Below, piece by piece: positions 2,623-64,000 of a stretch of DNA of 64,000 nt; position 1 is the stretch's first letter, and the number at the start of each line of letters is the position of its first letter. The notes beneath the pieces were generated by a model. The model ran no database searches. It saw only the letters and a list, made by a program, of their open reading frames with translations, and was not told the origin of the DNA. Location: NCBI RefSeq assembly GCF_963921235.1, contig NC_086097.1, positions 149,484,001-149,548,000 on the forward strand. The letters run 5' to 3'. The DNA is from Mobula hypostoma (taxonomy: Eukaryota). The position numbers and the translations under genes were made by a program.

Positions 2623-3939
2623 TGTGTTCAATAATTCATTTCCTCAAATTTTCAAGAACACTTTGAAATGTTGAATTAAAGTTGTTCCACTCACCAAAGA
2701 TAAAAATGGCAAAGATAGCCTTGTGGGATAAACCTGAGTTTCTTGTTATTTTGTGCCCATACTTTTATATTATCCAGACTTTCTTCTGCTGCAGAAATGC
2801 CTCTAAGAATGGGAGAGTAAAATAGATTGGTTTGGTTGCATTGCTTCTCTCTGTTGTGTAAAAGCAGCTCCATAAAAACTTCATTCTCCTTTACTCCACA
2901 TAAATTACCAGTATCTCATGCTCTCTCAGAAAAGCAGTTTCATGTGGGAAGCATTTGCTTGCTTAGCAGATGAAGCACAACACTGAGGGGGGGAAAATGT
3001 CATCTTGGACAGTGATTGGAAGTCCTATAGCACTATGCAAAGAGAATGATATTTCCAATCAATGTTTACTTTGCTGTTATTATTTTTGCTGGGTGCGACT
3101 CCTTGATTTGCATTTGTAAATTGCATGTTTTCTTAATTACAACAGTGTTCATTCTTCATGGAATACTTATATTAGTAAGCTTATCTTTTTTAAACCAAAT
3201 TCAATATATTTAATCCTAAAAATCTTACAGTTACCTTTTTTCTCTTCTCCCTCCACCTCATTCTGCCTGATGATCAAACTGGGGCTCTCTACCTTCATTT
3301 TTGTGTTGAAGTATCTCAATGAGATGAGATTGTTAAAGTGCTGGACAAACACAAGCAGATTTACAACTCAAAGCTACTCTGAGTCAGTCCTAATTTGTGC
3401 AATGCTAAGCACAGTAAAGCTGGTGTGGGAGAGATATCACACTGATCCCAGCGGTTTAATAACATAATGCAGATTAATGTGTCAATTTACCAATGGCAAA
3501 ATGACCGAATTAGAAATTACATCTGGTTGGATTTCTGAACATTTTGCTCATTGTGAAAATTTTAGAGGAGGGAATTGGAGTTCTGTGGGTGTCCTGGCCA
3601 TAGAGCGATTCCTTGTGCAAATGTATTAAATTGTTTGCTGCCCTAAAATATTGTACATTTATTTGCACACAGGGTATCAACATTGCTAGCAAGATCAGCA
3701 TGTATTGTCCAACCCTCATTACCATTCAATTAAGTGGCTCTTCAGGTTATTTCAGAGAGTGTTTCAGTGTCAATTGAACACATACGGATCCTGATTCATA
3801 TAATCCCAGGCCAGGGAAGGATACCCATCCTCCCTTAAAGGAAAATAATCAATCTGATGTTTTGTTGCAGCAAATCAATAAATTTCCTCATCCCATTAAC
3901 CAAACTAACATGCTATTTTAAAATTCCAGGTATATTTAG

Positions 3940-23700: not shown

Positions 23701-24950
23701 CGCAAGACAGAACTCAGTCTGCAGGATGGCTGCATTTTCTGAGGGGCGGGGGCGAGGGTCATCGTGCCTCCCCCTGGCCATTCACAGATTGTGGAGGAAA
23801 TTCATGAGACTCACCCAGGGTGTCTCGAATGAAAAGCCTTGCGAGATCCTACGTTTGGTTGTCAAGAATGGATCAGGATCTGGAGAACAAGGTAAAATCA
23901 TGCACGCAATGTCAGACTAATCAGAATATGCCACCACCAGCTCCTTTACACCCATGGGAGTGGCCAGACCACCCCGGTCTAGGCTACATTTGGACTTTGC
24001 TGGCCCTTTTATGGGGCAGAAGTTTCTTGTAATGGTAGAATTGCATTCTAAATGGATTGAAGCTCACATCATGAGCAACATCACAGCCCCCTCAACCATA
24101 GACAAACTCAGGCAAGTGTTTGCAGTCCACGGGTTGCCTGACACTCTGGTCACTGATAACAGCCTGACGTTCACCAGTGAGCTGTTCAGTGAGTTCATGC
24201 AGCAGAATGGCATTCATCACATTCGGACGGCCCCTTTCCACCCAGCCTCCAACGGTTTGGCTGAGCGGGCTGTTCAGACAGTGAAGGAAGGCCTGAAGTG
24301 GATGACAGGGGACTCTCTTAGCATTCGGCTTTCACGTTTCTTGTTTAAATACCTCCTCACGCCACAGACTACGACAGCCTGCACTTCAGCAGAGATGCTG
24401 ATGGGGCATAGGCCCAAGTCAAGATTGGACCTGCTGTGCCGGGATATGAAAGCAAAAGTGGAGAGAAAGCAGGAAAAGCAGAAGGAGGGACATGATCAAC
24501 ATGCGTGAGAGTAACAGTTAAAACTGGATTACAACGTCTATGTGAGAAACAATCAGCAATGACTGCCTGGGGTTATTCTTAAACAGAGTGGTCCCATCTC
24601 CTATGTTGTTAAGCTGACTGATGGGAGTGTTTTCCGCAGACATCAGGACCATGTGCACCTGCGCCATGATACCGGCTCAGAGGCAGACAGTTCCATGGAG
24701 TTTCCATTTGTGAGACAGACTACGGTGGAAGCATGTCCACCGGTGACTTTGCCAGAGTGCAAGACGCTGTCAGAGGGGTCGGGGTCCCCTGAGGAGGATG
24801 GACATTCTCACGCAGACACACAGCCCCCCCTCGTTCCCCCAAAACCAGATCTACCGATAAAACCCTCACCAGTGGTGCCTGCTAGGTCACCGGGGGTAGT
24901 GCGCAGATCACAGCTCACTCGTAAACCTCCTGACAGACTGAATCTTTGAC
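20711..24950 (+). mobile_element. Decayed Ty3/Gypsy LTR retrotransposon (Mag-like): gag-PR-RT-RH-IN
   Basis: Gag zinc knuckle CFQCGGTHYANDC, protease FEIDSGA, RT YLDD, RNase H CDASPYG.GAVL, integrase HLDFAGP/VTDN/SNGLAER and C-terminal RRS..TRKPPDRL; several frameshifts and stops. LTR-like end ACCACA at about 20891 followed by PBS-like TGGCAATGAGG at 20898-20908. Confidence 0.93.
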
Positions 24951-40160: not shown

Positions 40161-40358
40161 GTCAAGAATTCACCACTTCATTTCACAAGACCTTTGTGCG
40201 GACAGATTATCGTAATGTAAATACAGGAGTATACAAGGCTATCGCATTTTCTGCAAATGCATCAAGCTTAACAAACGTACATCATTTCTGTCGGCATTCC
40301 TGTGGGAAGGAGCAGTGCTGTGATGGATTCGTGTTGAGTCAGTTGTCGCTTGACAGAG
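40161..40358 (+). CDS. TG: Thyroglobulin exon 26 equivalent
   Basis: ttttctctag| ... AGAG|gtacaa; 198 bp. Encodes GQEFTTSFHKTFVRTDYRNVNTGVYKAIAFSANASSLTNVHHFCRHSCGKEQCCDGFVLSQLSLDR, versus human ...FSASGANLTDAHLFCLLACDRDLCCDGFVLTQ. Confidence 0.96.
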
Positions 40359-40678
40359 GTACAACAACTCAAAAGATTTTGAAGAAATATTGCAACGGGC
40401 AATATTAATTTTCTGCAGTCATTGGTTACAGTCATATAGAAAAGTGTGATACAGCATATAAACAAGACCTTTGGACTGACATATTAACTATTAATCACTG
40501 GTCCGTACTATTCTCATTTACCAGCACTTGGTCTGTGGCTTTCTATTCCCTGAAACCTTCATTGCTGCACTAAAGATGTCTTCAGCTGTCTTAGATGATG
40601 CACTTAAAAATTAAAGGGCTTCAATCCTTGTTACTACATTAGAAGGGGATATCTTCTGGACTGGATACCACATTATAT

Positions 40679-41440
40679 GTGACCTTTTCAGAATGGCAGG
40701 CGGTGACTAGTGGGGTACCACAAGGCTCAGTGCTGGGACCCCAGTTGTTTACAATATATATTAATGACTTGGATGAGGGAATTAAATGCAACATCTCCAA
40801 GTTTGCGGATGACACGAAGCTGGGTGGCAGTGTTAGCAGTGAGGAGGATGCTAAGAGGATGCAGGGTGACTTGGATAGGTTGGGTGAGTGGGCAAATTCA
40901 TGGCAGATGCAATTTAATGTGGATAAATGTGAAGTTATCCACTTTGGTGGCAAAAATAGGAAAACAGATTATTATCTGAATGGTGGCCGATTAGGAAAAG
41001 GGGAGGTGCAACGAGACCTGGGTGTCATTATACACCAGTCATTGAAAGTGGGCATGCAGGTACAGCAGGCGGTGAAAAAGGCGAATGGTATGCTGGCATT
41101 TATAGCGAGAGGATTCGAGCATAGGAGCAGGGAGGTACTACTGCAGTTGTACAACGCCTTGGTGAGACCACACCTGGAGTATTGTGTGCAGTTTTGGTCC
41201 CCTAATCTATCTGTGGAATTCTCTGCCACAGGAAACTGTTGAGGCCAGTTCATTGGCTATATTTAAGAGGGAGTTAGATATGGCCCTTGTGGCTACGGGG
41301 GATCAGTGGGTATGGAGAGAAGGCTGGGACGGGGTTCTGAGTTGGATGATCAGCCATGATCATAATAAATGGCGGTGCAGGCTCGAAGGGCCGAATGGCC
41401 TACTCCTGCACCTATTTTCTATGTTTCTATGTTTCTATAT
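40679..41440 (+). mobile_element. Relatively young CR1 3' fragment with internal deletion
   Basis: Clean RT frame SGVPQGSVLGPQLF...FADDTKL...RPHLEYCVQFWSP, then a jump at about 41207 to 3'-terminal sequence. Confidence 0.92.
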
Positions 41441-43900: not shown

Positions 43901-44354
43901 CAATGACTCGATACAGTTTTATAAGACAATCAGCCATCAGCTCAAGTCATCAGCTATTCTGGGAGCATTAGAGTCAAATGATAGTGAAGTTCAGAGTTGC
44001 TACTTTAAAGCATTAACTTGCAGCTTATTTATTCCAGGAAAATTCAGGCATGCTGAAAGAATGTGGTCTAGAACTTAATAATTGTGCAGAAAATTTCTGG
44101 CTGCTGATGTCACTGAAATAATTTGCATTGGTCTGTAGCATCAAGAAAATAATTGTGGGATTATTCTTGGAATAATATACTATTCCTATTGCTTTTTAAA
44201 AAATATTTTAAAAGGGAGTTTGAAAATGACAAAGCATAATAAACAGGAGGAGGATGAAAACATATGACCTTTTGTGGCTGTTCTGCATTCATTAAGTTTA
44301 CAGCCATTCTGATCTTGAACTCAGCTTTACTTTTCTGCCAGTCACCCATCACCA

Positions 44355-47345
44355 GTCACCTATTTTAATGCTAGGAGCATTGTAAGGAAGGTGGAGTATG
44401 GATTGAAACCTGGAAATATGATGTTGTAGCTATTAGTGAAACGTGGTTGCAGGAGGGGTGTAATTGGCTTCTCCCGTGGAGGGTCAGACACCCTGAGCCA
44501 ATAGGCTGGTCCTGGACTTATTTCCATCTGGCATAGTTTGCATATTGTTGTTTGATTGTTTGTGGTTTTTGTATTGCTATATTTATGCTCTATTCTTGAT
44601 TGGTGCAGCTGTAACGAAACCCAATTTCCCTCAGGATCAATAAAGTCTCTCTGTCTATTCCAGGATTTCATTGCTTCAGGTGTGATAGAATAAGAGGGGG
44701 AGGTGTTGCATTGCTTGTCAGGGAAAATATAACAGTGGTGCTCTGGTAGGATAGATTAGTGGACTCATCTAGGGAGGCTATTTGGGTGGAATTAAGGAAT
44801 AGGAAAGGTGTTGTGATGCTTATAAGGGTGTACTATAGACCACCTAATGGGGACTGAGAACTGGAGGAGCAAATCTGTAAGGAGATAGCAGATATTTGTA
44901 GTAAGCACAAGATTGTGATTGTGAGAGATTTTAATTTTCCACACATAGACTGGGAAGCCCATTCCGTAAAAGGGCTGGATGGTTTGGAGTTTGTCAAATG
45001 TGTGCAAGATAGTTTTTTTGGAGCAATACATAGAGGTACCAACTAGAGAAGGGGCAGTGTTGGACCTTCTGTTAGGGAATGAGACAGGGCAGGAATGGAG
45101 GTATGCGTTGGGGAGCACTTCGGGTCAAGTGATCACAATACCATTAGTTTCAGTATAATTATGGAGAAGGATAGGACTGGACCTAGGATTGAGATTTTTG
45201 ATTGGAGAAAGGCTAACTTTGAAGAGATGTGAAAGGATTTAGAAGCAGTGGATTGGGACAATTTGTTTTATGGGAAGGATGTAATAGAGAAATGGAGGTC
45301 ATTTAAAGGTGAAATTTTGAGGGAATCTTTGTTCCTGTTAGGTTGAAAGGAAAGGTTAAAAGTTTGAGAGAGCCATGGTTTTCAAGGGATATTGGAAACT
45401 TGGTTTGGAAAATAGAGAGGGATCGGCAATAAATTTAGGCAGCTTGGAGTTAATGAGGTACTCGAGGAAATTAGAAAAGCTAAAAGAAGATACGAGGCTG
45501 CTTTGGCAAGTAAGGTGAAAATAAATCCAAAGGGTTTCTACAGTTATGCTAGTGGCAAAAGGATAGTGAGGGATAAAATTGGTCCCTTGGAGAATCAGAG
45601 TGGACGCTTATGTGTGGAGCCAAAAGAGATGGGGGAGATTCTGAACAATTTCTTTTCTTCGCTATTCACGAAGGAGAAGGATATTGAATTGTGTAAGGTA
45701 AAGGAAACAAGAAGGGTAGTTATGGAAAGTTTGACAATTAAAGAAGAGGAAGTACTGGTGCTTTTAAGGAATATAAAAGTGGATAAGTCTCCGGGTCTGG
45801 ACAAGATATTCCCAAGGACCTTGAGAGAAGTTAGTGTAGAAATAGTAGGGGCTCTAACAGAAATATTTCAAATGTCATTAGAAACTGGGATGGTGCCGGA
45901 GGATTGGCGTATTGCTCATGTGGTTCCCTTGTTTAAAAAGGGTTCTAAGAGTAAACCTGGCAATTATCGGCCTGTGATTTTGACGTCAGTGGTGGGTAAA
46001 TTGATGGAAAGTATTCTTAGAGATGGTATATATAATTATCTGGATAGACAGTCTGATTAGGAACAGTCAACATGGATTTGTGAGTGGAAGGTCATGTTTG
46101 ACAAATCTTATTGAATTTTTTGATGAGGTTACTAAGAAAGTTGACGAGAGTAAAGTGGTGGATGTTGTCTATATGGACTTCAGTAAGGCCTTTGACAAGG
46201 TTCCACACGGAAGGTTAGTTAGGAAGGTTCAATCGTTAGGCATTAATATGGAAGTAGTAAAATAGATTCAACAGTGGCTAGATGGGAGACACCAGAGAGT
46301 AGTGGTGGATAACTGTGTGTCAGATTGGAGGACGGTGTGTAGCGGTGTGCCTCAGGGATCTGTACTGGGTCCAATGTTGTTTGTCATATATATTAATGAT
46401 CTGGATGATGGGGTGGTAAATTGGATTAGTAAGTATGCAGATGATACTAAGATAGGTGGCGTTGTGGATGATGAGATAGGTTTTCAAAGCTTGCAGAGAG
46501 TTTTATGCCAGTTAGAAGTGTGGGCTGAAAGATGGCAGATGGAGTTTAATGCTGAAAAATGTACATTTTGGTAGGACTAATCAAAATAGGACATACATGG
46601 TAAATGGTAGGGCATTGAAGAATGCTGTAGAACAGAGGGATCTAGGAATAATGGTGCATAGTTCCCTGAAGGTGGAATCTCCTGTGGATAGGGTGGTGAA
46701 GAAAGCTTTTGGTATGCTGGCCTTTATTAATCAGAGTATTGAGTATAGGAGTTGGGATGTAATGTTGAAATTGTATAGGGCATTGCTGAGGCCAAATTTG
46801 GAGTATTGTGTACAGTTCTGGTCACCGAATTATAGGAAAGATGTCAATAAAATTGAGAGAGTACAGAGGAGGTTTACTAAAATGTTGTCTGGGTTTCATC
46901 TCCTAAATTACAGAGGAAGGTTGAACAAGTTGGGTCTTCATTCTTTGGAGCGTTGAAGGTTGAGGAGGGACTTGATAGAGGTGTTTAAAATTATGAAGGG
47001 GATTGATAGAGTTGATGTGGATAGGCTTTTTCCATTGAGAGTGGGGAAGATTCAAACAAGAGGACATGAGTTGAGAGTTAAAGGGCAAAAGTTTAGGGGT
47101 AATATGAGGGGGAACTTCTTTACTCAGAGAGTGGTAGCTGTATGGAACGAGCTTCCAGCAGAAGTGGTTGAGGCAGGTTCAATGTTGTCGTTTAAAGTTA
47201 AATTGGACAGCTATATGGACAGGAAAGGAATGGAGGGTTATGGGCTGAGTGCAGGTCGGTGGGACTAGGTGAAAGTAAGAGTTCGGCACGGACTAGAAAG
47301 GCTGAGATGGCCTGTTCCCATGCTGTAATTGTTATATGGTTATAT
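44355..47345 (+). mobile_element. CR1 LINE with near-complete but disrupted ORF2
   Basis: EN (ETWL, YRPP, DFN, SDH) and RT (SQHGF, DFSKAFDKV, YADD) motifs and 3' tail; contains a Rex-type 3' tail insertion at about 44470-44655. Confidence 0.93.
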
Positions 47346-47592
47346 GATTATAACTCTTGACTCTCTTGACTTAAACTTCCACTGTATTCTGGGATGAGGA
47401 GTTCCATCTCAGAGAAGAAAATCCTCCTCATTTCTCTGTGTTAGTTCTAATTCTGATATTATACTTCATAAATCTAGATAACTTCACTAGAGGAAAAATA
47501 TTTTCTTCATCCACACCATCAAACATACTCAGAATCCAACATGTTTTAATAAGATTTCCTTTCATTTTTCTAAACACCAATGGGTTTAGGCT

Positions 47593-49013
47593 TTCACCCT
47601 GCCCCTCAAGTTTACCTGGTCCATTTCCAACACCTCCCTCCCCTTTCTAGATCTTTCTGTATCTATCTCTGGAGACAGCTTATCTACTGATGTCTACTAT
47701 AAGCCTACTGACTCTCACAGCTATCTGGACTATTCCTCTTCTCACCCTGTCTCTTGCAAAAACGCCATCCCCTTCTCACAATTCCTCCGTCTCCGCCGCA
47801 TCTGCTCTCAGGATGAGGCTTTTCTTTCCAGGACGAGGAAGATGTCCTCCTTTTTTAAAGAAAGGGGCTTCCCTTCCTCCCCCATCAACTATGCTCTCAA
47901 ACACATCTCCCCCATTTCACGCACATCTGCTCTCACTCCATTCTCCCGCCACCCCACTAGGAATTGAGTTCCCCTGGTCCTCACCTACCACCCCACCAGC
48001 CTCCGGGTCCAACATATTATTCTCCGTAACTTCCGCCACCTCCAGCAGGATCTCACCACTAAGCACATCTTTCCCTTCCCCCCCCCCCGCATTCCGCAGG
48101 GATCGCTCCCTACGCAACTCCCTTGTCCATTCGTCCCCCCCATCCCTCCCCACTGATCTCCCTCCTGGCACTTATCCTTGTAAGCGGAACAAGTGCTACA
48201 CATGCCCTTACACTTCCTCCCTTACTACCATTCAGGGCCCCAAACAGTCCTTCCAGGTGAGGCATCACTTCACCTGTGAGTCGACTGGGGTGATATACTG
48301 CGTCCGGTGCTCCCGATGTGGCCTTTTATATATTGGTGAGACCCAATGCAGACTGGGAGATCGTTTTGCTGAACACCTACGCTCTGCCGCCAGAGAAAGC
48401 AGGATCTCCCAGTGGCCACACATTTTAATTCCACATCCCATTCCCATTCTGACATGTCTATCCACGGCCTCCTCTACTGTCAAGATGAAACCACACTCAG
48501 GTTGGAGAAGCAACACCTTATATTCCGTCTGGGTAGCCTCCAACTTGGTGACATGAACATTGACTTCTCTAACTTCTGCTAATGCCCCACCTCCCCCTCG
48601 TACCCCATCCGTTATTTATTTATATATACACATTCTTTCTTTCTCTCTCTCCTTTTTCTCCCTCTGTCCCTCTCACTATACCCCTTGCCCATCCTTTGGG
48701 TTTTTCCCCCTTCCCCCTTTTCCTTCTCCTTGGGCCTCCTGTCCCATGATCCTCTCATATCCCTTTTGCCAATCACCTGTCCAGCTCTTGGCTCCATCCC
48801 TCCCCCTCCTGTCTTCTCCTATCATTTTGGATCTCCCCCTCCCCCTCCCACTTTCAAATCTCTTACTAGCTCTTCCTTCAGTTAGTCCTGACGAAGGGTC
48901 TCGGCCCGAAACGTCGACTGTACCTCTTCCTAGAGATGCTGCCTGGCCTGCTGCGTTCACCAGCAACTGATGTGTGTTGCTTGAATTTCCAGCATCTGCA
49001 GAATTCCTCGTGT
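47593..49013 (+). mobile_element. Penelope-like retroelement (Neptune-type), 5'-truncated
   Basis: RT C-terminus, Cys linker CKRNKCYTC, GIY-YIG endonuclease (GVIYCVRCSRCGLLYIGET...R..EH) and hammerhead-bearing tail; 13-bp TSD ATGGGTTTAGGCT at 47580-47592 and 49014-49026. Confidence 0.92.
48884..48919 (+). ncRNA. Minimal type-I hammerhead ribozyme motif (best-preserved copy)
   Basis: AGTC-CTGACGA-A-GGGT/CTCG/GCCC-GAAA-CGTC-GACT; all core nucleotides and stems I and II intact. Confidence 0.78.
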
Positions 49014-49324
49014 ATGGGTTTAGGCTCAACTATTTAATCACTCCTCTTACTACTATCCCTTCATCCCAGAATTCAGCCTTGTGAATTTTATTTGAGCTGT
49101 GTCCAGTATCAAGATTATCTCTGCTGAAAAAGAACAAAACTATGTACGTAGTCCAGGAGTGTATTTATCAATCCCTATTTCAGAGGTAAAAAATACATCT
49201 GTACACAAACCCTTTTAGTCAATATTGCTTTCTGCAGTAACTTGAGAATAAATTTCTATTTCCCATTTGTGAGGTTTACCAGATCTCTCTATGCAGCAAC
49301 ATTCTGTAGTCTCTATCTCCCTGA

Positions 49325-52130
49325 TTATTCTCTTGCTCTTGATGTATGTATAGGATGCCTTGGGATTCTTTTTAATCCTACTTGCCAAAGATTTTTCATG
49401 CCCCCTTGTGGTTTTCCTAATTCCCATTTTGCGTTCTTTTCTGGCTTCTTTATAATCCTCAAGGGTTCTATTTGTTTCTAGCTTCCTAAACTTTACTTAA
49501 TTTTTCTTTTTCTTGACTAAATGCACCACATCTCTTGACATCCAAGTTCTATTACCTTGCCATACTTCCTTCTGACAGGAATATACCTATTCTGTGCTCT
49601 GTGCAGTTGGTCTAACCCTCCATATGTTAGATGTGGAATTGTTCAAAACATATCTGTTCCCAATTAACTCTCCCTAATTCCTGCCAAATGCTCTTGTAAT
49701 TTGCCCTACTCCAATTTAATACTTTCCCGCAAGGTCCAAATTTATTCTTACCCATCATCGTCGTCATCATCATCACATGCCATGTTGTTTGACTATGATT
49801 GTTCTTGGTAAAGTTTTCTACAGAGATGCTTTGCTATTGCCTCCTTCTAGCAATGTCAGTGATCCCAGCCATTATCAATATGTTTGAGATTGTCTGCCAG
49901 ATGTCAGTGGTTGCATAACCAGGACTTGTGATATGCACCAGCTGCTCATATAACCATCCATCACCCTGCTCCCATGGCTTCACATGACCCTGATTGGAGG
50001 GGATAAGCAGGTACCCTGCAAGTGAGCAGAGTGAAGAAGCCCCTTGCACCTCCTTTGGTAGAGATGTATCTCCACCCTGCTACCCAATCCTTGTCTATAG
50101 CTATCTTAAAACTTAAGGAGTTGTGGTCACTGTTCCCTAACTGCTCACCTACTGAAAGATCAATCTCCTTAAAAGGCTTATTATCCAACACCAGGTCCCA
50201 GTACACCCCCTCTACCTGCATCATCTAGAATACATATTGATTTAAGAAATGCTCTTGGATGCCTCATTCTGCCTCATCTAATCCTCTTGCACTCAGAAGG
50301 TCTCAATTTATACTAGAGAGGTTGATGTCTCCCATGCCAACAGCCCCATTGTTTTAACACCTTTCCTTAATCTGCCTGCATGTCTGTTTTTCAATGTCCT
50401 AGTCAGCCTATTGGGGGTCTGCAGTACAGTCCCATCAGAGTGATTGCACCCTTATTTGTGAGTTCTACCCATATAGACCTAGTGCATGTGCCCTCCATTT
50501 TGTCTCCTTGGAAGCACAACTCCCCTTCCCTCTTTTTACTCCCTCTCTATCTTCTTCTAAAACATTGAAACCCTGGACATTAAGCACCTTCTCTTAAACC
50601 AAGTTTCTGAAATGGCCACAGCATCATAGTTCCATGTACTGACCCATGCCCTAAGTTCATCGCTTGTATCTATGTTACTCCCAGTATTAAAACACACAAG
50701 TTTCAAGAAAATCAAATCAGAGCAGGACTGTACTATGAATGGTAGGGCACTGTGGAATGTAATGGAACAGAGGCACCTAGGAGTACAAGTGCAGTGCAGG
50801 AAGGATGCTGAAAAGAATTCTGAGGGACAAGATCTACCAGAACTTCTATAGACAGAATATGGTTAGGAGCAGTCAACATAGATTTGTGTGTGGGAAGTCA
50901 TGTTTGATGGATCTTTTAGTTCTTTGAAGAGATAACTGAAAAGATAGCTGAGTGTAAGGCATATCATGCTGTCTTTTTGGACTTTAGCAAGGCCTTCCAC
51001 ATGATCCCTATGGTAGGCTGGTTTGGAAGGTTACGTCCCATGGATTGCAGGGAGAGCTCATTAGGTTAATTCAAAATTGGCTTGGAGGTAGGAAGTGGAG
51101 AGATGTGGTTGAAGTCTGTTTCTAAAATGGAGACTGGTGACTAACGGCGTGCTGCGGGGATTGGTGTTGGGACCCTATTATTCATCATTTACATCATTTA
51201 GAAGTGTATTGTTCACTGGAAGCGCATCACAGGTGGATATCGTGGTGAGAAGGTCGTTTAGCATGTTGGCCTTCATCAGAGTACGGGAGTTATTACAGGA
51301 CATTATGTTGAAGGTTAAGTTGTTGATGAAACTGTACTCAAAGTACTGTGCAGAGTTTTGATTGCTCTGTTATAGGAAATATTGTTAAACCAGAAAGACT
51401 GCAGAAAAAAATTACAAGGATATTGTCAGGATGAAAGGCTTGCCCTGAGTTATAGGTAGAGGTTGGCCAGGCTAGGTGTTTATTCCTTGGAACATAGGAG
51501 AATGAGAAGCAGCCTTTCATAGTCGTGTTTAAAATTGTGAGTGGAATAGGAGGGAGGATGATAATGGCCTTTTCCACAAGGTAAGGAGCACAAAACTAGG
51601 AGACATAGATTTAGGGTGGGGTGGAAAAATTTTAAATGTACCGGAGGGAGAATATTTTTCTCACACAAGCTGGTAAATGTGTGGAATGAAATGCCAGAAT
51701 TAGCAAGTACAGTGGTATCACTTAAGAATCAATTGGATATGCACATGGAGAGGAGGAACCTTTATCTTTCCAGTTCGGTAAAGCGACTCAATCCAAATCA
51801 GCGAATGTCTGTTTCTCTTCATTAATGCTGCCTGACTTGAGTTCCTCGAGTGTTCCAACTCACCTTGGATCTTATATGACCTCATCTTCTGGACCATCCC
51901 ACTGTGAGGGACCTTCTCAAATGTTTTCCTAAAATCCACATAGCAATATCTATTGGCCTACCCTCATCATCTTCATCATTTTCTAAAAAATCAGTCACAT
52001 TTGTGAGAGAAGACCTCCCCAGCAGAATGCCAAGTTGACTATCCCCATATTTTAATGCTTTTCCAAATGCAGGTAGATACTGCCCCTAACCATCTCTCCA
52101 TAGAAGCCTTACCAGCCTATAAGTTCCTGG
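49325..52130. mobile_element. Cluster of CR1 fragments in both orientations, plus an unrelated repeat at about 49750-50085
   Basis: Minus-strand EN motifs (LG.SDHNS), plus-strand RT and 3' remnants, and minus-strand MDFRKTFEKVPH. Confidence 0.7.
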
Positions 52131-53072
52131 CCAGTAAAATAAACACAAAATATCATTCAAAAAGTTAGAATATTCTTTTTCTTTTCAGAACTGAAAGGCA
52201 CACAAAAAATCAATCAAAAATACAATCTGACATAAATAAAGAAAAGACAATTACTTAACTGTCCCACAAGAGCTGATTTCTTCCATGTTTTTGAATAAAG
52301 ACTGCCAGGCTTGGACTGTTTAATGCAATACAGGTGTGCTAGCAAAGGCAACAGCTCAAGTGTAGGGCAATATGTGGAAAATTGCGATGTCCGGTTGGCC
52401 TGCAGGAAGAATTCTATCGGGCAGCTGGTTGCGTATGGAGGAAAATGATTGTGCAGGTACCAGCCTTGGAAATTTGAAATTCTGTGAGGATTAGATCTGT
52501 CCAAAATTCTCCTTTACTATTCTTCCAGCTGAAGAAGATATCCTTACATTTTTCAGCATTATATTCCATCTACACTACTCATCAATTCACCTTACCAAAG
52601 CTGTTCCCTCATGATTAACTTTTCCATTCATCTACATCATAGTAAGTGATTGAAGCTTCAGCATTAATCCTGAACCATGTAAACTGTTATAGCTTGCCAA
52701 CTTGAAAATGATGGACTTATCCTCACTCTTAGTTTCCTGTTAATTTGCATGAATAGCTATCGTCATTTAGTATAGGTAACATAAATAGATGTGCCTATTG
52801 AATTAGGTTCATTTCTTTGAATGGTTTAATTTGTGAAACTACACATCCAGTTTCTGTGCTTCTGCATATTTCCTTTCTGCACTGAAAATACACTTCCAAT
52901 AGTGGGAATCTAAACTCCAATGATACAGAAGAGACCCTTCCAATGGCTGTTCTATGCTAATAGCATTACCCTTTCATCCATTGTTCAGGAATTGTTTTGC
53001 TGTTACACTAGGTCGAATGAAATGGGATAGCATGATACTCGTAGCACATAATTGTGTATGATTGGTTTGCAG

Positions 53073-53237
53073 GTACCCTCCTCTGTGGTCTGATCAGTTA
53101 TCCAGATGTACTACTTTGTAATGTTGATGACTGGCAGACAGCATCTGTACTCAATGATGGTGCTTGTGGTGGTGTTAATTCAAACACACAAAGGAAGAAC
53201 CTCACGTCAAATATTGGAGGACAGCAGTTCAGTGGCT
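53073..53237 (+). CDS. TG: Thyroglobulin exon 27 equivalent, copy a
   Basis: tttgcag|GT ... GGCT|gtaagt; 165 bp, phase 1-1. Encodes GTLLCGLISYPDVLLCNVDDWQTASVLNDGACGGVNSNTQRKNLTSNIGGQQFSG, versus human GAIICGLLSSPSVLLCNVKDW...CPGV...LGDQEF. Confidence 0.92.
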
Positions 53238-54611
53238 GTAAGTAAAAATTTGTGTGATTACATCCTGATCTATTAATTACTCAGCAGTGTTCAGTTTTAA
53301 ATAAAGGAAAGGATGAAGGATTTTTGCTTTCCATTTCATCGCCTCAAAATGTACCAAAACAGTTTACACACAATTAACTTTTAAACTGTAGCCATATTAG
53401 AATATAGGAGAAGCTGAGTTAAAAGGCATGCACTAAGTTTCCATTAGCAGCAATAAAATATGAACAGATGGTTGAGAAATTAACACTACCCACCAGACTG
53501 GGGCTAGCTCACTTTCTATGATCCAGATAGAAACAGCAGAAAGGTTGGCACAATACTCACAGTGCCAAGTCTGAAAATGGAACTAGGAATATTCAAGAAT
53601 TGGTGCTTAGTCTAACATGAGATGTAATTTTTTTTTAAGATAGTTGTTATCTCAGCTCTAGAAATGAGCCTTGCAGGAAAGCTGACCAAGGATTAGAGGG
53701 CCACAGGATGTTGCCTCTATCTTATTGAACAGTCTATCACTGAATAGTCACAGACAAAGAGACAGCAAAGCCAATATTCTGAGGATGTCATGGAACAACA
53801 GTGCAGTGTGATATGCAGTGGTTTGGCATGAATTTGCATTTATAATTCCACACATCATTGAATTCCAAATTTGAATATATCACAATGAAGAACAGTATGT
53901 GCACACTGTCACATCCCTTAAGGGAGGAAAAAATGTTGGAAAAGCAATGTTTCTGATATACACTTGTGGATCCTTTTAGAAGCATATGTTGGCAAAAAGG
54001 TCAATGAAGACAGATTCAGTGAAGAGTCAACTGAGCTTTAATAGCTTGAATGTGAAAATTAATTAATTCAGAGCTCAGTTTTCATAGAGTTTTGGATGAT
54101 TCTGAAAACTTTCCAGCTTACAGTTGTACTGAACAGTTTGATTTATATAATCAGATCTGCTTCATTCTCACGAAGATGCAGTTCAGTGAAAGTGTGGCAC
54201 TGGCTTGCATCCAATGGATCAGTGGCTGTTGCATTGGCTATCTGGCTGCTCATTGTTCAAGTTTATTCTCATTGAACTGTATACATGTACACCAACGAAC
54301 AAAACAATGTTCCTCTGGACCAAGGTGCACAATGCAGTACATATAACTCAGGCAATAACACAATGTAATTTTACACAAATAAATTAACAAATAATATAAT
54401 ATTTTTCTAAAAGATTGACATTTAGCAGAAGATGCATTGGAGTAATTTGTCATAGTCTATTAACATTAAGAATATAATCATGTAAATATTTTTGGAATGA
54501 CACTTTATTTCTGTTGCATTTTCACAAATTTTAAACAATGGCAGTATGAAAATATATAAGCATAAAATAGAAGGACAAAACATGTGGATTTTTGAGCTGA
54601 TCTGAACTTGC

Positions 54612-56190
54612 CTGGCACCTGTATGGGTCCCAGCTATGGCTGCCTTTTTGTTGGCTTTGTGGAACAATCTATGTTCCAAGCCTACACTGGTATCTGTCCC
54701 CCTCTTTTCCTTCACTACATCGAAGACTGCATTGGCGCTGCTTCCTGCACGCATGCTGAGCTCGTTGACTTCATTAACTTTGCCTCTAACTTTCACTCTG
54801 CCCTCAAGTTTACCTGGTCCATTTCTGACATTTCCCTCCCCTTTCTTGATCTTTCTGTCTCTATCTCTGGAGGCAGCTTATCTACTGATGTCTACTATAA
54901 GCTTATGGACTGTCACAGCTACCAGGACTATTCCTCTTCCCACCCTGTCTCTTGCAAAAATGCTATCCCCTTCTCGCAATTCCTCCGTCTCTACCGCATC
55001 TGCTCTCAGGAAGAGGCTTTTCATTCCAGGACAAAGGAGGTGTCTTCCTTTTTTAAAGAAAGGGGCTACTCTTCCTCCACCATCAACTCTGCTCTCAAAC
55101 GCATCTCTCCCATTTCACACACATCTGCTCTCACCCCATCCTCCCGCCACCCCACTAGGAATAGGGTTCCCCTTGTCCTAACCTACCACCCCACCAGCCT
55201 CCGGGTCCAACATAGTCTCAGTAATTTCCGCCACCTCCAACGGGATCCCACCACCAAGCATATCTTTCCCTCCTCTCTCTCCCCCCCCGCCCTTCCGCAG
55301 GGATCGCTCTCCATGTGACTCCCTTGTCCATTCATCCCCCCCATCCCTTCCCACCGATCTGCCTCCTGGCACTTATCCTTGTAAGTGGAACAAGTGCTAC
55401 ACATGTCCTTACACTTCCTCCCTTACCACCATTCAGGGCCCCAGATAGTCCTTCCAGGTGAAGCGACCCTTCACCCGTGAGTCGGCTGGTGTGATATGGT
55501 GCTCCCGGTGCGACCTTCTATATATTGGTGAGACCTGACACAGGCTGAGAGACCGTTTTGCTGAACACCTACGCTCTGTCTGTCAGAGAAAGCAAGATCT
55601 CCCAGTGGCCACACATTTTAATTCCACATCCCATTCCCATTCTGATATGTCCATCCACAGCCTCCTCTACTGTAAAGATGAAGCCACACTCAGGTTGGAG
55701 GAACAACACCTTATATTCCGTCTGGGTAGCCTTCAACCTGATGGCATGAACATTGACTTCTCTAACTTCCGTTAATGCCCCTCTTCCCCTTCACACCCCA
55801 TCCCTTATTTATTTATTTAATATATATATTTTTCCCCTTTTTTTCCCTCTTCTCTCTCTGTCCCTCTCACTATAAATCCTTGCCTGCTCTCCACTCTCGG
55901 GGCTCCCTTCCCCCCTTCTCTCTCCCCCCAGGCTTCCTGTCCCATGATCCTCTCCCTTCTCCAGTTTGGTATCCCTTTTGCCATTCAATTTTCCAGCTTG
56001 TAGATCCACCCCTCCCCTCCTGTCTTCTCCTATCACTTTGGATCTCCCCCTCCTACTTCCAAATCCCTTATTATCTCTTCTTTCAGTTAGTCCTGCTGAA
56101 GGGTCCCAACCTGAAACTTCGACTGTACCGCTTCCTATAGATGCTGCCTGGCCTTCTGCGTTCCACCAGCATTTTTTGTGTGTGTTGCTC
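54612..56190 (+). mobile_element. Penelope-like retroelement (Neptune-type), 5'-truncated
   Basis: RT GT.MGPSY.CLF.G..E, YIEDC (YIDD-like), KFTWS, DVYYK; GIY-YIG remnant; tail with mutated hammerhead at 56089-56124. Confidence 0.92.
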
Positions 56191-56279
56191 AGTTTTACTT
56201 TCCTGCAACCATTGACTCTGATATTTCAAGAATTTGCCTACTGCAATCACTTATAAAAACAATGATTAAATTTTCACTT

Positions 56280-58817
56280 TTCTGGAATGAGTTCCTAGCA
56301 TTTACAACCAACAAAGAGAAGAAAATACCCCAATTTATCTGTGTGACCTCTTATTCTGACGTAATTCTAAATGATCCAGAATGATTAGCTAAATGAAGAA
56401 TCTTTTCTTCATCTACACTATTAAACACCCTCAGAATCTAACATTTTTCATAAGATCACATTCCATTCTTCTCAACTTCAATGGCTTTGCACTCAATCAC
56501 TTAGTCACTCTTCTTAATAACATCCCTTCATCCCAAAAGTCAGCCTTGTGAATTTTCTCTGAGCTGTGTCCAGTATCAAGATTATCCCTTCTGAAAAAGA
56601 GCAAAACTATATGCTGCAGTTCAGCTGTGTATTTAACAACATCTATTTCAGAGGTAAAAACACTTTTATACCCATTTTTGTTTTGCTTAAAATCAACATT
56701 CCCTTTGTCTCTGCTTTAATCCCAGGATAAATTTCTATATCTCATTTGTGAGATTTTCCAGATCATCTAGTCAGCAACATTCTGTAGTCTCTATCTTTTT
56801 AAACTCTTTTTGATTCAGTTAATTTCCTGGTGCAGTTCTCCACTGGCATCTCAGCTTCTATCTGCTTAGTGTTGCCCAGCACAGCAAAGAGGATCCTTCA
56901 GCACAGACAACTAATTGCTTTTATAGAATCCCTTTGACAACTGGTAAGATTCCCAACCCCAACTCAGCCCACTTGTTGTTCGTGAGCTTGGAGCCGTTTT
57001 CATGTTATCCACTAATTTTCATGTTATATCCAAATTTTCTGTCAGCTCATTTACATACTTATCAAAATCATTCACGTATCACAGCAAAGGTTCCAGCACT
57101 AATCCTTGGAGAATATCATTGTTCACAGACTTTCGATCAGAAAAACACTCCTCCACTGTTACACTCTATCTTACGATCAAACCAAATTTGGATCCAATTT
57201 GCCAACTCAACTTGAATCCTATGTGACCTAATCTCTGGACCAACCTACCATGAGTGATTCTGTCAAATGCTTTGCTTGAGTCCAGAAAGCAACATCTATT
57301 GCCCTACCTTCATCAATTATCTTTATCACTTCATTGAAGAAATCTATCAAATTTGTCATCTGGGACCTCTCCAATCTAAATGCATGCTTACTATCCCCAA
57401 TATTTCCATGCTTTTCCAAATGCAAGCAAACCATGGCATAAATAACCATTGTTTTTGTGCATAAATAACATAAATAGGTGTGCTTATTGAATTAAGTTCC
57501 TTTTTTGTAATAGTTTTATTTATAATAATGTGCTTACAGTTTCTGTGCTTCTGCTTACTTATTTTCACAATGAAGTTAGACTTATGGTGGGAATCAAAGG
57601 TACAAAGGCCAAGAAGAGACCCTTCTAACGTGTTCTGTCCTTCACTGTTACTGATCTGGTGATTTGTTGTTTGGGAACTGTTTTGCCATTTCATGGGGCA
57701 GCAGGGCATTCATTGTACATTTTTGATTGAACATTGATTGTTTTTCAGGCACACTTCTCTGTGGTCAGATCAGTTTTCCAAATATACAGCTGTGTAATGT
57801 TGAAACCCAGCAGACAAAACTGACCTCTACGCTTGGAGATGGTGTTTGCAGAGGTGTTAAGTCCAACAAACAAAAGAAGACGTTCATGTTCATCATTGGA
57901 GGACAGGTGTTTAGTGGCTGTAAGTTCTTGATCTACTATTTACTCAGCCATGTTCAGTTTTAAATAAAGGAAAGCAGGGTTTGAAAGATAACTGTCTTGA
58001 AATTCATACTTCTGCAATGCACCAAACTTTATTCACAGAATTTACTTTTGTACTTGAGTTGCATTAGAATTTTGTGAAAGTATTAGCCAAAATAAGTACA
58101 TTGCATTCCATTAGCAGCCATTAACTAATGATAAGCTAATTGAGAGATTAATACTAACTTGTACTAGGGTCATCTCCCCGGTCGTCTTCAGATAGAAACA
58201 ATGCCAGGTTTGAAATTAGAACTAGAAACTTCTGATAATTCATGTGCGATGTATAAAATTAGGACAGTTCTTATCTCAGCTCTTGGGTTAGAAACCAGAT
58301 AAACTGACCAAAGAATTAGCTGACCACATGCTCTTGCCTCTATCTTATTGAATAGCCTGTCTCTGTTCAGACCTGATCAAGAAGAATATCATAGCCAGGG
58401 TCTTATTTGATGAATTGAGGCATCAATCCGTGTGAGATACAGTGATTTAGTATGAGGCTGCATTCATGATCTCACACATTGTGATATATTCAAATTTGGA
58501 AATTCAACAATGAAAAGCAGTACATGCACATTGTTATATCCCTTACAGCAGGACAAAATACTGGAAATAGCAATTTTCCTGATAAATTCTTGTGGATCTT
58601 TCAGATAAAAATATGTTGTCAAAAAGATTGATGCAAATAGATAACAGTAAAATAAACCAATTCGGTTTTCATAGAGATTTGGATGAACTTTGAAAAAGTT
58701 TTCTAGTTCATAGCTACACAGCATTGGAATATCACTTGTATGATTAGTTCTGCTTCATAGTTTAGTAGATTCAGTTCAATGAAAGTGTTGCACTAACTAA
58801 TGTTCATTTGATCAGTA
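56280..58817 (+). repeat. Intragenic tandem duplication unit B (contains exon 27b)
   Basis: Shares intronic strings with unit A, e.g. gagctgtgtccagtatcaagattatc, tgttcagttttaaataaaggaaag, ttgcctctatcttattgaa. Confidence 0.85.
57749..57919 (+). CDS. TG: Thyroglobulin exon 27 equivalent, copy b (duplicated exon)
   Basis: tttttcag|GC ... GGCT|gtaagt; 171 bp, phase 1-1, no stop codon. Encodes GTLLCGQISFPNIQLCNVETQQTKLTSTLGDGVCRGVKSNKQKKTFMFIIGGQVFSG; 33 of 57 aligned residues identical to copy a by hand alignment. Use in mRNA is not proven. Confidence 0.8.
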
Positions 58818-60907
58818 GACCATTTGCAGTGGAAAAAGTTTAGAAGCTAAAACTTAAAAGGTTTCAAATGGGTTTTTGCCACCAAACTTTTCATTATCCC
58901 AAATGGTCATGTATAGATTTTATTAATTTTCCCTTACTCATTCAACGTCCCAGATTAATAGATTTTATGCAATAATTGTGTAAGCTTACATTTTATTTTG
59001 AGACTTTGTCTGAATAGCCTCCTTTCCCACTAAGAAATTTGAAATAAATGATTTGTTTTAGGTCTGTGAATAAATGAGAAGCCCATTTCTTACATATTGT
59101 GCACACACTGATCAAAAATACCGTGAAAATACCGAATGGAGAAGGAAATTTTGACATTATAACTAGAGGTGCCATGTTTCACTAGTTCTTTCTCAGAAGG
59201 CCATTCCCTCTAGTTACTGGCCACAAACTACTGTTGCATATTATATGGGACCAAAACCCACTATTCTTACAATGACAGCATCAGTAATGCAGAGATGGGC
59301 TACCCTACTATCTCAATACAACTGTAGCATTTGAAGAAAGAACATTTAAAATGCAGAAGACACAAAGAATGAAAATTACAGGCAAGGGAAGGAAATTTTC
59401 TGGTCAGAGAAGTAAACCAGCTGAAACTACTAAATATGAAAAGGCCTGATTTTGAAGCAAGTCACTGAGCAAGATTAAGTGGATTGGTTGATCCCATTCA
59501 AGTCTAAATGAGGCTATAGATATAACACTGTGGAGGCCATATGTTTTCTACCAACTAATGTAGCATAAAATAGGGACACAAGTTAATGCTACTGAAAGAA
59601 TTTCTTTACAAAGTTATGTAAAGAAATTCTATGCATTAGGGTTTAATGTAGTGAATATAAAAAGCGACTATTAGAAATGTCTTTTGGCCTGGATCAGACA
59701 AAGAGTGAGGAGAGCAGAAGACAGCATATCAAAAAATCTCCTAAAATGAATCCCACGGCTTTTTAAGAAGAAGCAACATATAATGTTTATGAAGAAAATC
59801 AATTAGAGACTTTGTCATTTGAGTCCAGGAGTAGATAATATTCCAACAGCATCTGATGAATCTTGAAGTGCTACTGGGAAATCTCAGACAGACTGGAACT
59901 TGGTTAAATTTGTAAATAAATGAATTCAATTTACATTTAAAACAGAGAAAATAATTGTAATAGCTTATTTTAAGGCTGCCACTTCTCTTTAAGGATAGTG
60001 TGCCATGTAACTTGCAACAATGCACATTGTAAATTCCAGAGTCAATCATGAATAGCCAATGAATTAATCACATATACCTTGTCAGAGCTTCCTGTGTCTC
60101 TCATGCATAAATGTAAACACACTTCAGGTTCTGCACCATTGTGCCCATGTTTTGCAACTTCAGATATGCAGAATGAAGCAAGCCAAGAAGAAAAGAATAT
60201 TTAAGCTTCAGATAAACAAAAGATTTTAAATCAAAAACTTTGCTTTTAAGGCCATTCAACCCATCATGTCTATGCTAGTATATAACATTTCCATCAACTC
60301 TAAGGAAATCCCTGGTTATTTCGCTTTTACCTATTCTCACTCACAAACCCATGAATTTCACCTTGATTCCACACCTACCCCAAGGGCAATGTACATGAGC
60401 AAAATAATTGACAGATCTGAACAGCTTTGGGATATGGGAGAAAACTATGGCGCTCAGGGGAAAGCTATGCAGTCACAGGGAGGTTGGGCAAACCCAACAT
60501 GGGCAGCATTGGGGGTCAGGATTAAACCCATAGGAGATGTGTGGCAGTGTCACCGAATCATCCACACAGGCAAGATGTTTAGGGTACATTAAATACAATA
60601 GGGATACAAGAAAGAGTGAGAAGGAAAGCTAATTAAAGGATTATCACGCTCTTCATTTTCTATGTCATGCTGATAAAATAGAAGGATGTGAGTTATTTCA
60701 TAATTCTTTCCCAAGGCTATTTCAGAGCACCTAGAAGTTTTTAGGACATCCTCAAGTTCCTTTTTCTTAATGTTTCATTGCATGCTCTGTGCTTATCGGA
60801 GTCTAATTCAGGACACCAAAAGACTATTGTTGTCTTTATCTCATGCAGAATGTTTGAAATGAGCAAGTGTAACATGAAAGGAATTTTGACGTTCTATTTT
60901 CATGCAG

Positions 60908-61027
60908 CTTATGCATTGCTAGCAGAAAGCTTTAAGGATGCTCGGTACTCAAATGAACTGACGCCAGAATTGGAGGAAAATTTTCAGAGAACGTTTAATC
61001 GTTTCCAGCATGTCTACCTCTGGCAAG
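60908..61027 (+). CDS. TG: Thyroglobulin exon 28 equivalent
   Basis: tttcatgcag|CT ... CAAG|gtgagc; 120 bp. Encodes SYALLAESFKDARYSNELTPELEENFQRTFNRFQHVYLWQ, versus human ...LTPLEGTQDTFTNFQQVYLWK. Confidence 0.9.
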
Positions 61028-61429
61028 GTGAGCTTTACATCCTGTTGTTAATGTTTAATTTTACAGCTATCATTTTTTTTTCATCCATTGCCCACCTCCA
61101 TTGACATCCAACATCTTTTCTATGACTCAAACAATTTCCATATCACATTGATCTGATAGAGCTCTTAAAGATAGCAGAATCAAGGGATATGGGGAGAAGA
61201 CAAGAACAGGGTACTGATTGTGGATAATCAGTCATGATCACAGTGAATGGTAGAGCTGGCTCGAAGGGCCGAAAGGCCTACTCCTGCACCTATTGTCTAC
61301 TGTAATGCATATTCATTAAGAGATCAGTTTGTGGCCCCCTTTTAGGATTGACAATGCTATAGTTTGGAGGTTGGTATATAAAAAAAAAACCCTCACAATT
61401 TTTTCTCAATAAAAGAACCAATCAGTTTC

Positions 61430-62732
61430 CCTCCACCATCACTCTCCTTCGTCTGGCAGAACTGATCCTCACCCTCAACAGTTTTGCTTTCTGATCCTCC
61501 CACTTTCTCCAGGCTTGGGGACTAGCCATGGGCACCCACATGGGTCCCAACTATGCTTGCTTTTTTCACTGGCTATGTAGAAGAGTCCATGTTCCACGAC
61601 TTGCCTGGTAATAATCCCCAACTCTTCCTTTGCTACACTGATGACTGTATTGGTAATGCTTCATGCACCCATGCCATGCTCATCAATTTCATCAACTTTA
61701 CCTCCAATTCTTATCCTGCCCTTAAATTCACTTGGTCCATTTCTGACACCTTCCTTCCCTTTCTTGAACTTTCTGTCTTCATTTCTGGAGACCAACTGTC
61801 AACCAACATCTTTTATAAATCTACCAGTTCCACAATTATCTTGACTATAACTCTGTCTCCTGTAAAAATATTAATCCCTTTTCTCATTTCCTTGTCTCTG
61901 CTATATATGTTCCCAGGATGCAGCCGCCTTTTGCAGGGCATCTAAGATGTTGTCCTCCTTCAAAGAACGGGGTTTCCCTTCCTCAAACAATGATGCTGCT
62001 CTCGCCCGCACATCTGTCATTTCTCAAATTGTCTTCCCTCTGCCTTAACAATGATAGAGTTCTTCTTGTCCTTGCCCATCACTCAATGAGCCTCCACATC
62101 CAACATATTCTCCGCAATTTCTGCCATCTCCAATGGAATCCTACCACCATCTTTACCTTCCCCCCCCCCTTCACTTTCCCCAGGGATTGCTCCCTCTGTG
62201 ATTCCCTTTTCTATTCATTCCTCCACACTAATCTCCCTCCCAGCACTCATCCCTGCAAGCAGCCAAAGTGCTACACCTGCCCATTCACCTCCTCCCTCAC
62301 ATCCATTTAGGGCCCCTGGTGAAGCAACACTTCACCTGTGAATCTGCTGGGGTCATCTATTGTGTCTGATGCTCCTGATATGGCTTCCTCTACATTAGTA
62401 AGACCCATCATAAATTGGGGACCACTTTGTTGAACACCTCCACTCCAATCGCCAAATGTGGAACTCCCTGGATGCCAAACATTTTAATTCTGATTCCCAT
62501 TCCTGGTCCTGTTCTGACTTGTCAGTCCATGATGACCTTTTGTACCATAATGATGCCATGCTCAAGGTGAAGGAGCAAAACCTTGTATTCCATTTGGGTA
62601 CACTCCAACATGCTGAAATGAAGCTCGTTTTTTTTTCTTGGTTTTTAAAAAGAAAGTTTCCCTTCCTGCTGACTTCCTCCAACATTTTGTGTGTGTTGCT
62701 TTGGGTTTTCAGCATCTGCAGAATTTCTTGTG
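61430..62732 (+). mobile_element. Older Penelope-like element
   Basis: YTDDC, ALKFTWS, CKQPKCYTC and GIY-YIG remnants. Confidence 0.85.
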
Positions 62733-63009
62733 TACAATTACTTTGTTCAGAAACCATCCAAGTATAATTTCAGATCCTCTTCTATCAATGTCCAGCCCTT
62801 TAGGAAAATGCATGTATAATTCCTACTGTGAATCAATTTTCCGTCATATTTTGCACATGATAATGTCTCCTAAAATCATGGTATGTATTTCTAGCTTGCT
62901 GACAAAAATTGGGTCAAAAGGTTCTGACCGATGATCAGTGGGTTGAGCAGCACCTGTGGAGGAAAGGAGTTGTTGAGGTTTTCTGGTCGAAAGCTTGCAC
63001 CTGGGCCAA

Positions 63010-63400
63010 TTAGAAGATTCAACATTCATGACTGTTTATCGTCATTTTCCGGTACTCAAATGTGAAGGAAAATGAAATGATTGTTACTCTGAATCCTCTG
63101 ATGCAGTATTTAAAAAAAAAAAATACTGAGCATAAAGAACGCAATAAAAATCACAATAAGCATAAATACATCAGATTCTGTTATATTCATTGACTGATTT
63201 ACATATATAAAAATTATGCTAGGTACTGGAGTATCTGTACATAAGGTGACTGACAGGATATGATAAAGTAGAAGTGGTGGGGTGGGTTAATGGGTAAAGG
63301 CATTGATCAGTCTGATGGCATGGGGAAGTAAGTGTTTTTGAGTCTGGTGGTCCTGGCATGGATGCTGTGCAATCTCTTCCCTAATGGGAGTAGGACAATA
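63010..63400 (-). mobile_element. Rex/Babar-like 3' fragment
   Basis: ctgatggcatggggaagtaagtgtttttgagtctggtggtcc, similar to the Rex-like fragments at about 6800 and 17850. Confidence 0.55.
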
Positions 63401-63636
63401 ACTGATGGTCTCTTAGGGAGATAGAAATTCAATTTAATTGTGCAAAGAATTAGATATCAGATATCACAAAGTGTATCAATATTACCAAAGAGTATGGGAC
63501 AATAATGATAAAAGACTTGATATGCAGCATGCTTTCCTTCACAACATATCAATTGTATTTACAGCTTTGACTTTTTCTATTGGGCAGGTTTTTCTTAGGC
63601 ATTTGAACTAAAATTATTGCTTCAATTGATTTTCAG

Positions 63637-63729
63637 ATTCTGACATGAACAAGAGGCTAAATTCCACCAACTCCAAAACTAAATGTTCTGGTCAAACTCC
63701 ACAAGACCAGCAGATTCCCAAACTACCAG
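63637..63729 (+). CDS. TG: Thyroglobulin exon 29 equivalent
   Basis: ttttcag|AT ... CCAG|gtattt; 93 bp. Encodes DSDMNKRLNSTNSKTKCSGQTPQDQQIPKLP, versus human DSDMGSRPESMGC... Confidence 0.88.
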
Positions 63730-64000
63730 GTATTTACAACTCATTATGCAGATTGTGGATGGCATAACTGAAGTTTTTAATACTGAGATTAATCATTTCT
63801 TATCAGGTAATGGTAGATAAATGAAATGGAATATCAATTCAACAATTAGGTCTGATAAACTGAAATTATGATTTCTGTTCCTAATATGATTGTGCAACAT
63901 TCATCAAATTGACATAAATTGTCCAATCCTAGATGACCCGAGAGGCTTGCAAACACTAAATAGCATGTCAGGGTATTTCAGAGGATAGTTAAGAGTAGTC

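Follow-up and report, generated by a model that had tools for sequence, protein, structure and literature searches.

A doubled thyroglobulin exon in rays: joint splicing of both copies and their complementary divergence

What does the thyroglobulin (TG) gene of a devil ray do with two copies of one exon? The question is raised by a 64,000-nt stretch of Mobula hypostoma DNA (NC_086097.1, 149,484,001-149,548,000; hereafter the window, whose own numbering we use), which carries part of TG on the + strand. Between the single-copy exons 26 (40161..40358, 198 bp, donor GTACAA) and 28 (60908..61027, 120 bp), exon 27 is present twice on the same strand, as 27a (53073..53237, 165 bp) and 27b (57749..57919, 171 bp). 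A sequence-only reading of the window had described both copies as splice-competent and proposed that they serve as mutually exclusive exons or as an extra type 3 module. The first statement was borne out: both copies have a CAG acceptor and a T|GTAAGT donor, are of phase 1-1, are free of stop codons and encode three Cys each. The protein identity, counted by hand as about 58% (33/57), was recomputed as 59% (32/54 aligned codons), so that the level of similarity stood while the count was revised. Likewise, the only indel between the exons is in frame (6 nt), and 26 indels, 20 of them not a multiple of 3, were counted in the introns aligned around them.

Six sequencing runs were found with TG exon 9 as the query; all were taken as RNA by guess, none being recorded as RNA, and the contigs of four (X1-X4) were aligned to positions 52900-63800 of the window. 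In X1, a contig of 7,897 letters (depth 74) contained 27b at 3178-3348 adjoining 27a at 3349-3515, with 0 differences and 0 gaps. It joins 53237 to 57749 across a new GT-AG intron (53238..57748, + strand) built from duplicated flanks. The X1 bin depths on 27a and 27b (33.9 and 34.8) are those of this contig alone (33.95 and 34.76), and the non-repeat intron bins showed depths of 0 to about 1; the contig is therefore spliced RNA. Its 3,177 letters past 27b agree with an expected coding length of 3,078 letters followed by a short untranslated region. X4, from another organism and another study, yielded a 668-letter contig covering 27b with 4 differences, whose 116 letters upstream of 27b exactly account for the depth of 1.69 on the 27a bin; the join was not listed as such, and by depth arithmetic the contig would fit the same 27a-27b join. 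In X2, a 191-letter contig covers 27a, and its next base is G, with which 27b begins but exon 28 does not. X3 had no cover on either copy and gives no evidence either way. These results established that, for the contigs in hand, 27a and 27b are spliced into the same mRNA, 26-27a-27b-28.

The 27a-27b junction was thus found in RNA without a mismatch. Its codon, T+GC, reads TGC; the first two bases of 27b complete a Cys codon, and the 57 extra amino acids plus junction Cys foreseen in the sequence-only reading are seen in RNA contigs and in database models. All exon-skipping junctions around the two copies also stay in frame. No 27a-only or 27b-only isoform was seen in the four runs, whose contigs drop rare forms and for which exon 26 lies outside the aligned stretch; in X1, there was no second isoform contig, and no other contig covers 27a or 27b. 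A retrocopy was considered as the source of the spliced contig and judged unlikely, the only two DNA matches in the genome both lying at this locus. Two features of the splice sites may be noted. Exon 27a starts with AG|GTACCC (53071-53079), a donor-like word right behind the acceptor (27b has AG|GCACAC), use of which would skip 27a by recursive splicing; none was seen in the contigs. The exon 26 donor (GTACAA, 40359-40364) is weak, and the Amblyraja model is 2 residues shorter there than that of Leucoraja.

Exon 27a matched human TG 1747-1798 (E 3.6e-6) and bovine TG (E 4e-8), exon 26 matched human TG 1684-1739, and the three exon 27 Cys align with human TG 1749, 1760 and 1777. Exon 27b is 54-66% identical to exon 27 of the TGs of non-myliobatiform chondrichthyans; alone, it had no PDB match at E<=10, and a protein search among longer proteins gave no match. 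Pfam assigned neither copy to any family, and a phage collection, serving as negative control, gave no match. A tblastn of ray TG proteins against 464 kb placed 26 TG exons upstream and the exons of the ChEL domain downstream, in order; the exon numbering 26/27/27/28 adopted by the sequence-only reading is therefore right. Genome-wide, there were 2 DNA matches to exon 27, both here. Protein matching gave 2 strong matches and a further one at E 6.2, so that these two copies are the only convincing ones in the genome. No further doubled TG exon was present among matches above 55% identity in the window and its 400-kb flanks, the last exons of the gene lying beyond that stretch.

To place the duplication, we compared 34 TG proteins: 4 from Myliobatiformes, 20 entries from sawfish, electric ray, skates and sharks, and 10 from bony vertebrates. 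Both copies in tandem, with the junction Cys, are present in three of the four myliobatiform models (Hypanus sabinus, Hemitrygon akajei and Mobula hypostoma), the last being 100% identical to the peptides of the window. The fourth, from Mobula birostris, has a hybrid exon 27 in place of two copies. All 30 non-myliobatiform proteins have a single copy. Because stingrays and Mobula have two copies and the 30 other proteins one, the sequences date the duplication to the stem of Myliobatiformes, apparently after the split from sawfish and before that between stingrays and devil rays.

The two copies have not diverged evenly. The 6 myliobatiform copies were aligned with the exon of 25 single-copy TGs, 17 of them chondrichthyan and 8 tetrapod; three near-duplicate shark entries and two ray-finned fishes were left out. 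When novelty was scored against the 17 single-copy chondrichthyans, the first and second halves contained 1 and 9 novel residues in 27a, and 10 and 2 in 27b (Fisher p=0.002 with a boundary picked post hoc; p=0.003 in a boundary-free rank test; p=0.0005 in a permutation test over the best boundary). Changes common to all three two-copy species occupy 13/54 inner positions (second half of 27a, first half of 27b) but 1/54 outer positions (p=0.0009). Exon 27b lost L6, V12, L13 and D19, each invariant in 25/25 single copies, and 27a lost F46 and F48, kept in 23/25 and 24/25. In these alignments, 27a has retained the first half of the ancestral exon and 27b the second; neither copy therefore looks able to work alone. 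Gene conversion was rejected as the source of this pattern, since conversion would have homogenized the copies instead of leaving them complementary.

Simple decay does not describe the inner halves. They keep most conserved positions (including all Cys, P10, G36, V37, N40, K44, G51, G52 and F55), and all 3 Cys are retained in both copies in all three species. In a simulation of a neutral exon, frame, absence of stops and 3 Cys were all kept in about 4% of cases. Between Mobula and stingrays, the inner halves show 8-9 differences in 54 positions whereas neutral change would have produced 15-29 (p 0.013-0.033 for the lower bound, a clock being assumed). The pairwise comparison of 27a with 27b was uninformative: dN/dS was 0.64 (bootstrap 95% 0.31-1.29), which by itself does not demonstrate constraint, and DNA identity between the copies is 74% in the exons and 68-69% in the flanks, i.e. 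only slightly higher in the exons. The segment has 12 Cys in the two-exon form and 8 in single-copy forms. Tyr numbers 4 in all 8 proteins counted, and therefore no effect on hormone sites is implied. A new N-glycosylation sequon at about 53199-53207, in the second half of 27a and hence in the insert, is absent from both stingray models.

The type 3b-1 repeat spans exons 26-30 (10.1101/2025.06.18.660348, partial text), and it lies in the flexible wing of TG according to the accessible part of PMC8748809. The duplication is therefore an insertion inside 3b-1; the proposal of an extra type 3 module was too strong. A whole type 3 repeat has a helix, a three-stranded sheet and 6 or 8 Cys, and only exon 27 with its 3 Cys is doubled; the type 3 repeat helix lies in exon 26 in both AlphaFold2 models that we made. 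In the single-copy segment of sawfish, modelled with a mean pLDDT of 77, the exon forms two strands and a helix, followed by three strands. The two-exon model, whose best structural matches were TG structures, shows the same strands and helix, to which 27a contributes its first half and 27b its second, with residues 83-158 unmodelled and the insert at pLDDT 20-27, i.e. no prediction. The outer halves probably rebuild the type 3b-1 repeat, and the inner halves would make up an insert of 55-57 residues with four Cys, one of them created at the junction.

Two topologies fit such an insert. The chain may form a pair of intact beads, one after the other, or a nested swap whose inner copy is circularly permuted. 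Either way, the first Cys of 27b would remain as the partner of the junction Cys, from which it is four residues away. In human TG, the disulfides here are presumably 1724-1749 and 1760-1777. A speculative extension, to which we give little weight, is that the chain is nested and domain-swapped: the first half of 27a and the second half of 27b would rebuild the ancestral subdomain, and the inner halves would fold as a circular permutant held by a bond between the third Cys of 27a and the second Cys of 27b and by the C-x3-C junction pair. This would be a new surface module on the wing, possibly for cross-linking or proteolysis in the colloid, with the two exons as obligate partners.

Taken together, we propose the following explanation, with a probability of roughly 0.8. 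About 3 kb around TG exon 27 would have been duplicated head to tail on the stem of Myliobatiformes. In the main mRNA, both exons are included as 26-27a-27b-28, as shown for the contigs examined. Because exon 27 is one piece of 3b-1, only the outer ends would find an anchor in the host domain: 27a with its first half, beside exon 26, and 27b with its second half, beside exon 28. The outer halves have stayed ancestral. The inner halves have lost residues that all single-copy TGs conserve, presumably contacts with the host repeat, and have then slowed again in their divergence. With the junction Cys, the inner halves would form an insert of the above length in the flexible wing/arm region. The phase-1 junction creates one Cys, so that the insert would gain four, an even number. 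According to the peer-review file of PMC8748809, 122 of the 123 Cys of human TG can form pairs, and the duplication may have been tolerated because an even gain suits a protein with nearly all its Cys paired. By now, 27a and 27b would depend on each other, loss of either leaving a repeat with one defective half.

Several observations weigh against this explanation. The RNA status of the runs is a guess and their tissue is undocumented, so that splicing in the thyroid may differ; a depth of 74 seems to us low for thyroid; and contigs lose rare variants. The tables of joint and loose-end contigs were filled by repeat-derived rows, and the join was taken from the contig alignment table; exon 26 lay outside the aligned stretch, and the exon 28 bin was confounded by a repeat. 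Single-copy status of the outgroups is known from protein models only, not from genomes. The database TG models were generated automatically and could depend on one another, and that of Mobula birostris shows the hybrid exon. Since the split of stingrays and devil rays, 9/54 inner and 7/54 outer positions have changed, i.e. at similar rates, and change in both halves is about twice the whole-protein rate of 7.5%. As for the structure, AlphaFold2 predicted none for the insert, and its alignment, in which only 3/30 rows cover the insert, put single-copy homologues on the outer halves and so biased the model.

The copies might be mutually exclusive or regulated exons, the thyroid making functional 27a-only and 27b-only TG beside or instead of the two-exon form. 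Complete splice sites, equal phase and in-frame skip junctions in both copies would allow it, as would the undocumented tissue and the loss of rare variants from contigs, and tandemly duplicated exons often turn into substitution events (PMC9741552, in its available part). The copies nevertheless occur together in mRNA, 27a being spliced straight to 27b in X1, where neither exon has any other contig; each has lost conserved residues in one half, whereas interchangeable exons need the whole fold; and the 4.5-kb intervening intron would impose no steric bar. We regard this use of the exons as unlikely, with skipping perhaps a minor form in the thyroid, whereas the retention of both copies and the isoform 26-27a-27b-28, which the sequence-only reading had also listed, hold. 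Slightly less likely still is an intron gain, in which a donor inside 27a (after 53159) is joined to an acceptor inside 27b (before 57839), so that the inner halves are intronic and a hybrid exon of normal length results, in some species or as a minor form. The Mobula birostris model is exactly such a hybrid, with the extra Asp predicted from the GT-AG join; the internal join coincides with the boundary of complementary divergence; and the mechanism is described (PMC3265369 and PMC4974935, in the portions available). The X1 contig contains 27a and 27b in full, however, and that of X4 the whole of 27b with the 3' 116 bases of 27a. The internal sites are poor (a GTGCTT donor and a GAG acceptor without a pyrimidine tract) while the outer ones are canonical, the inner halves are open and retain their Cys in three species, and gene modelling driven by alignment to single-copy homologues would yield the same hybrid.

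That one copy is a silent pseudo-exon, the alternative named in the sequence-only reading itself, is very improbable. The interval of dN/dS includes 1, its value is that expected of one constrained and one neutral copy, and exon identity is barely above intron identity; yet both copies are in the spliced X1 contig, which contradicts silence, both are intact in three species, and neither is uniformly decayed. The complementary pattern fits neither a pseudo-exon, which would decay evenly, nor interchangeable exons, each of which would keep a whole core. The most serious competitor, which we rate as distinctly possible though not favored, departs from our explanation only in the role of the insert: both exons are included, and the insert is merely a tolerated, unstructured loop without a function of its own. 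It agrees with the failure of AlphaFold2 to give the insert any structure, with its location in the flexible wing region (PMC8748809, accessible part) and with the 13 stem changes in the inner halves. Against it, the inner halves retain most conserved positions including all Cys, and between Mobula and stingrays they differ less than expected under neutrality with an assumed clock.

The duplicated unit is larger than the exons. Self-comparison revealed a head-to-tail block in which 5 collinear anchors link 44106-54201 to 54431-58794. The first copy (44106..54230, + strand, ends approximate), with anchors at 44106-44285, 47411-47587, 49014-49318, 51855-52071 and 52747-54201, has been swollen by later repeat insertions; the second (54431..58830, + strand, ends approximate) measures about 2.8 kb without its repeat. 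A multi-copy repeat, presumably Penelope-like by its features, lies at 47591-49013, about 54614-56190 and 61531-62733 and had heavy contig cover in all four runs. One of its copies interrupts the first duplicated unit and was therefore inserted after the duplication. Intron 26 also contains remnants of reverse-transcriptase-bearing LINEs, presumably CR1-like, at 40643-41430 and 44656-47316, and in intron 23 an open stretch (24020-24504) resembles an LTR-retrotransposon integrase.

Elsewhere in the gene, exons 28 and 29 (60908-61027 and 63637-63729; exon 29 is a single-copy exon of the + strand, its ends judged by eye from the sequence, and is covered by run contigs) are 55-60% similar to those of sawfish and Narcine, compared with 71-91% for exons 21-26, a drop partly inflated by match edges. 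Several of the changes are common to the myliobatiform models, and the divergence is possibly an adjustment beside the insert. TG exons 1-5 are present in the genome upstream of the window and the database model of Mobula hypostoma begins at exon 6; this model therefore looks truncated. Downstream of the window, an exon at about NC_086097.1 149582858-149582968 encodes an 8-Cys segment resembling somatomedin B, which precedes the cholinesterase-like domain. The segment is present in 22/22 chondrichthyan TG models and in 0/10 bony-vertebrate ones; Pfam PF01033 matched it at E 2e-4 to 7e-4 in 3/3 chondrichthyan proteins scanned, just short of the family cut-off. A lamprey TG transcript has a similar 8-Cys stretch, likened to type 3b modules in the accessible part of 10.1101/2025.06.18.660348. 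The 8-Cys segment is possibly an ancestral module of TG that bony vertebrates have lost; the literature searched contained no paper that links a somatomedin-B-like segment with TG.

In the same literature, to which most subscription papers did not belong, no description of a doubled TG exon was found. Papers on thyroglobulin in stingrays and other Myliobatiformes did not, by title and abstract, deal with its structure. The available part of a 38-species TG survey (10.1101/2025.06.18.660348) has no cartilaginous fish, describes TG architecture as fixed since lampreys and gives as size exceptions four teleosts that have lost the type 1-7 module. By word search, shark and cartilaginous have 0 occurrences in two papers on TG evolution, and these words and elasmobranch are absent from a 2026 review. 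The two-exon sequence itself is already public in three automatic database models, and tandem exon duplication is known; what is new is whole-exon inclusion with complementary halves inside TG. A lineage of rays has carried a Cys-rich insertion in a type 3 repeat since before the split of stingrays and devil rays. The insertion marks a site at which TG tolerates 55-57 extra residues, which is relevant to folding and endoplasmic reticulum quality control, and the site could serve for tagging. Our explanation predicts that single-exon TG forms fail and that the hybrid form works.

Compared with repeat 3b-1 of other vertebrates (human exons 26-30; PDB 6SCJ, 7B75 and 7N4Y), the ray form belongs to the same gene, with the same exon order and an exon 27 with three Cys, but has 55-57 extra residues and four extra Cys inside the repeat. 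The non-homologous inserts (NHIs) of TG type 1 repeats are also inserts within a TG repeat, that of repeat 1.5 bringing an extra Cys pair (PMC8748809, in part); the ray insert, in contrast, belongs to a type 3 repeat, is a homologue of the exon that hosts it and, in the set of proteins compared, occurs in a single order of rays. In intron gain by tandem genomic duplication, too, a new intron is made from duplicated intragenic sequence, but there an internal AG/GT site keeps the protein length (PMC3265369 and PMC4974935, accessible portions), whereas the ray contigs show whole-exon inclusion and a longer protein, and only the Mobula birostris model resembles that process. With substitutions derived from tandem exon duplication, i.e. 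mutually exclusive homologous exons, the ray locus shares the duplication of a symmetric-phase exon with its flanks and the retention of splice sites (PMC9741552 and PMC8373072, as far as available). The closest cases are ITGA6, ITGA7 and CACNA1C, whose display variants include both homologous regions in the available part of PMC9741552. Unlike mutually exclusive exons, the ray copies are spliced together and have diverged in complementary halves, an unusually clean case in which duplicated exons share out the ancestral sequence within one polypeptide.

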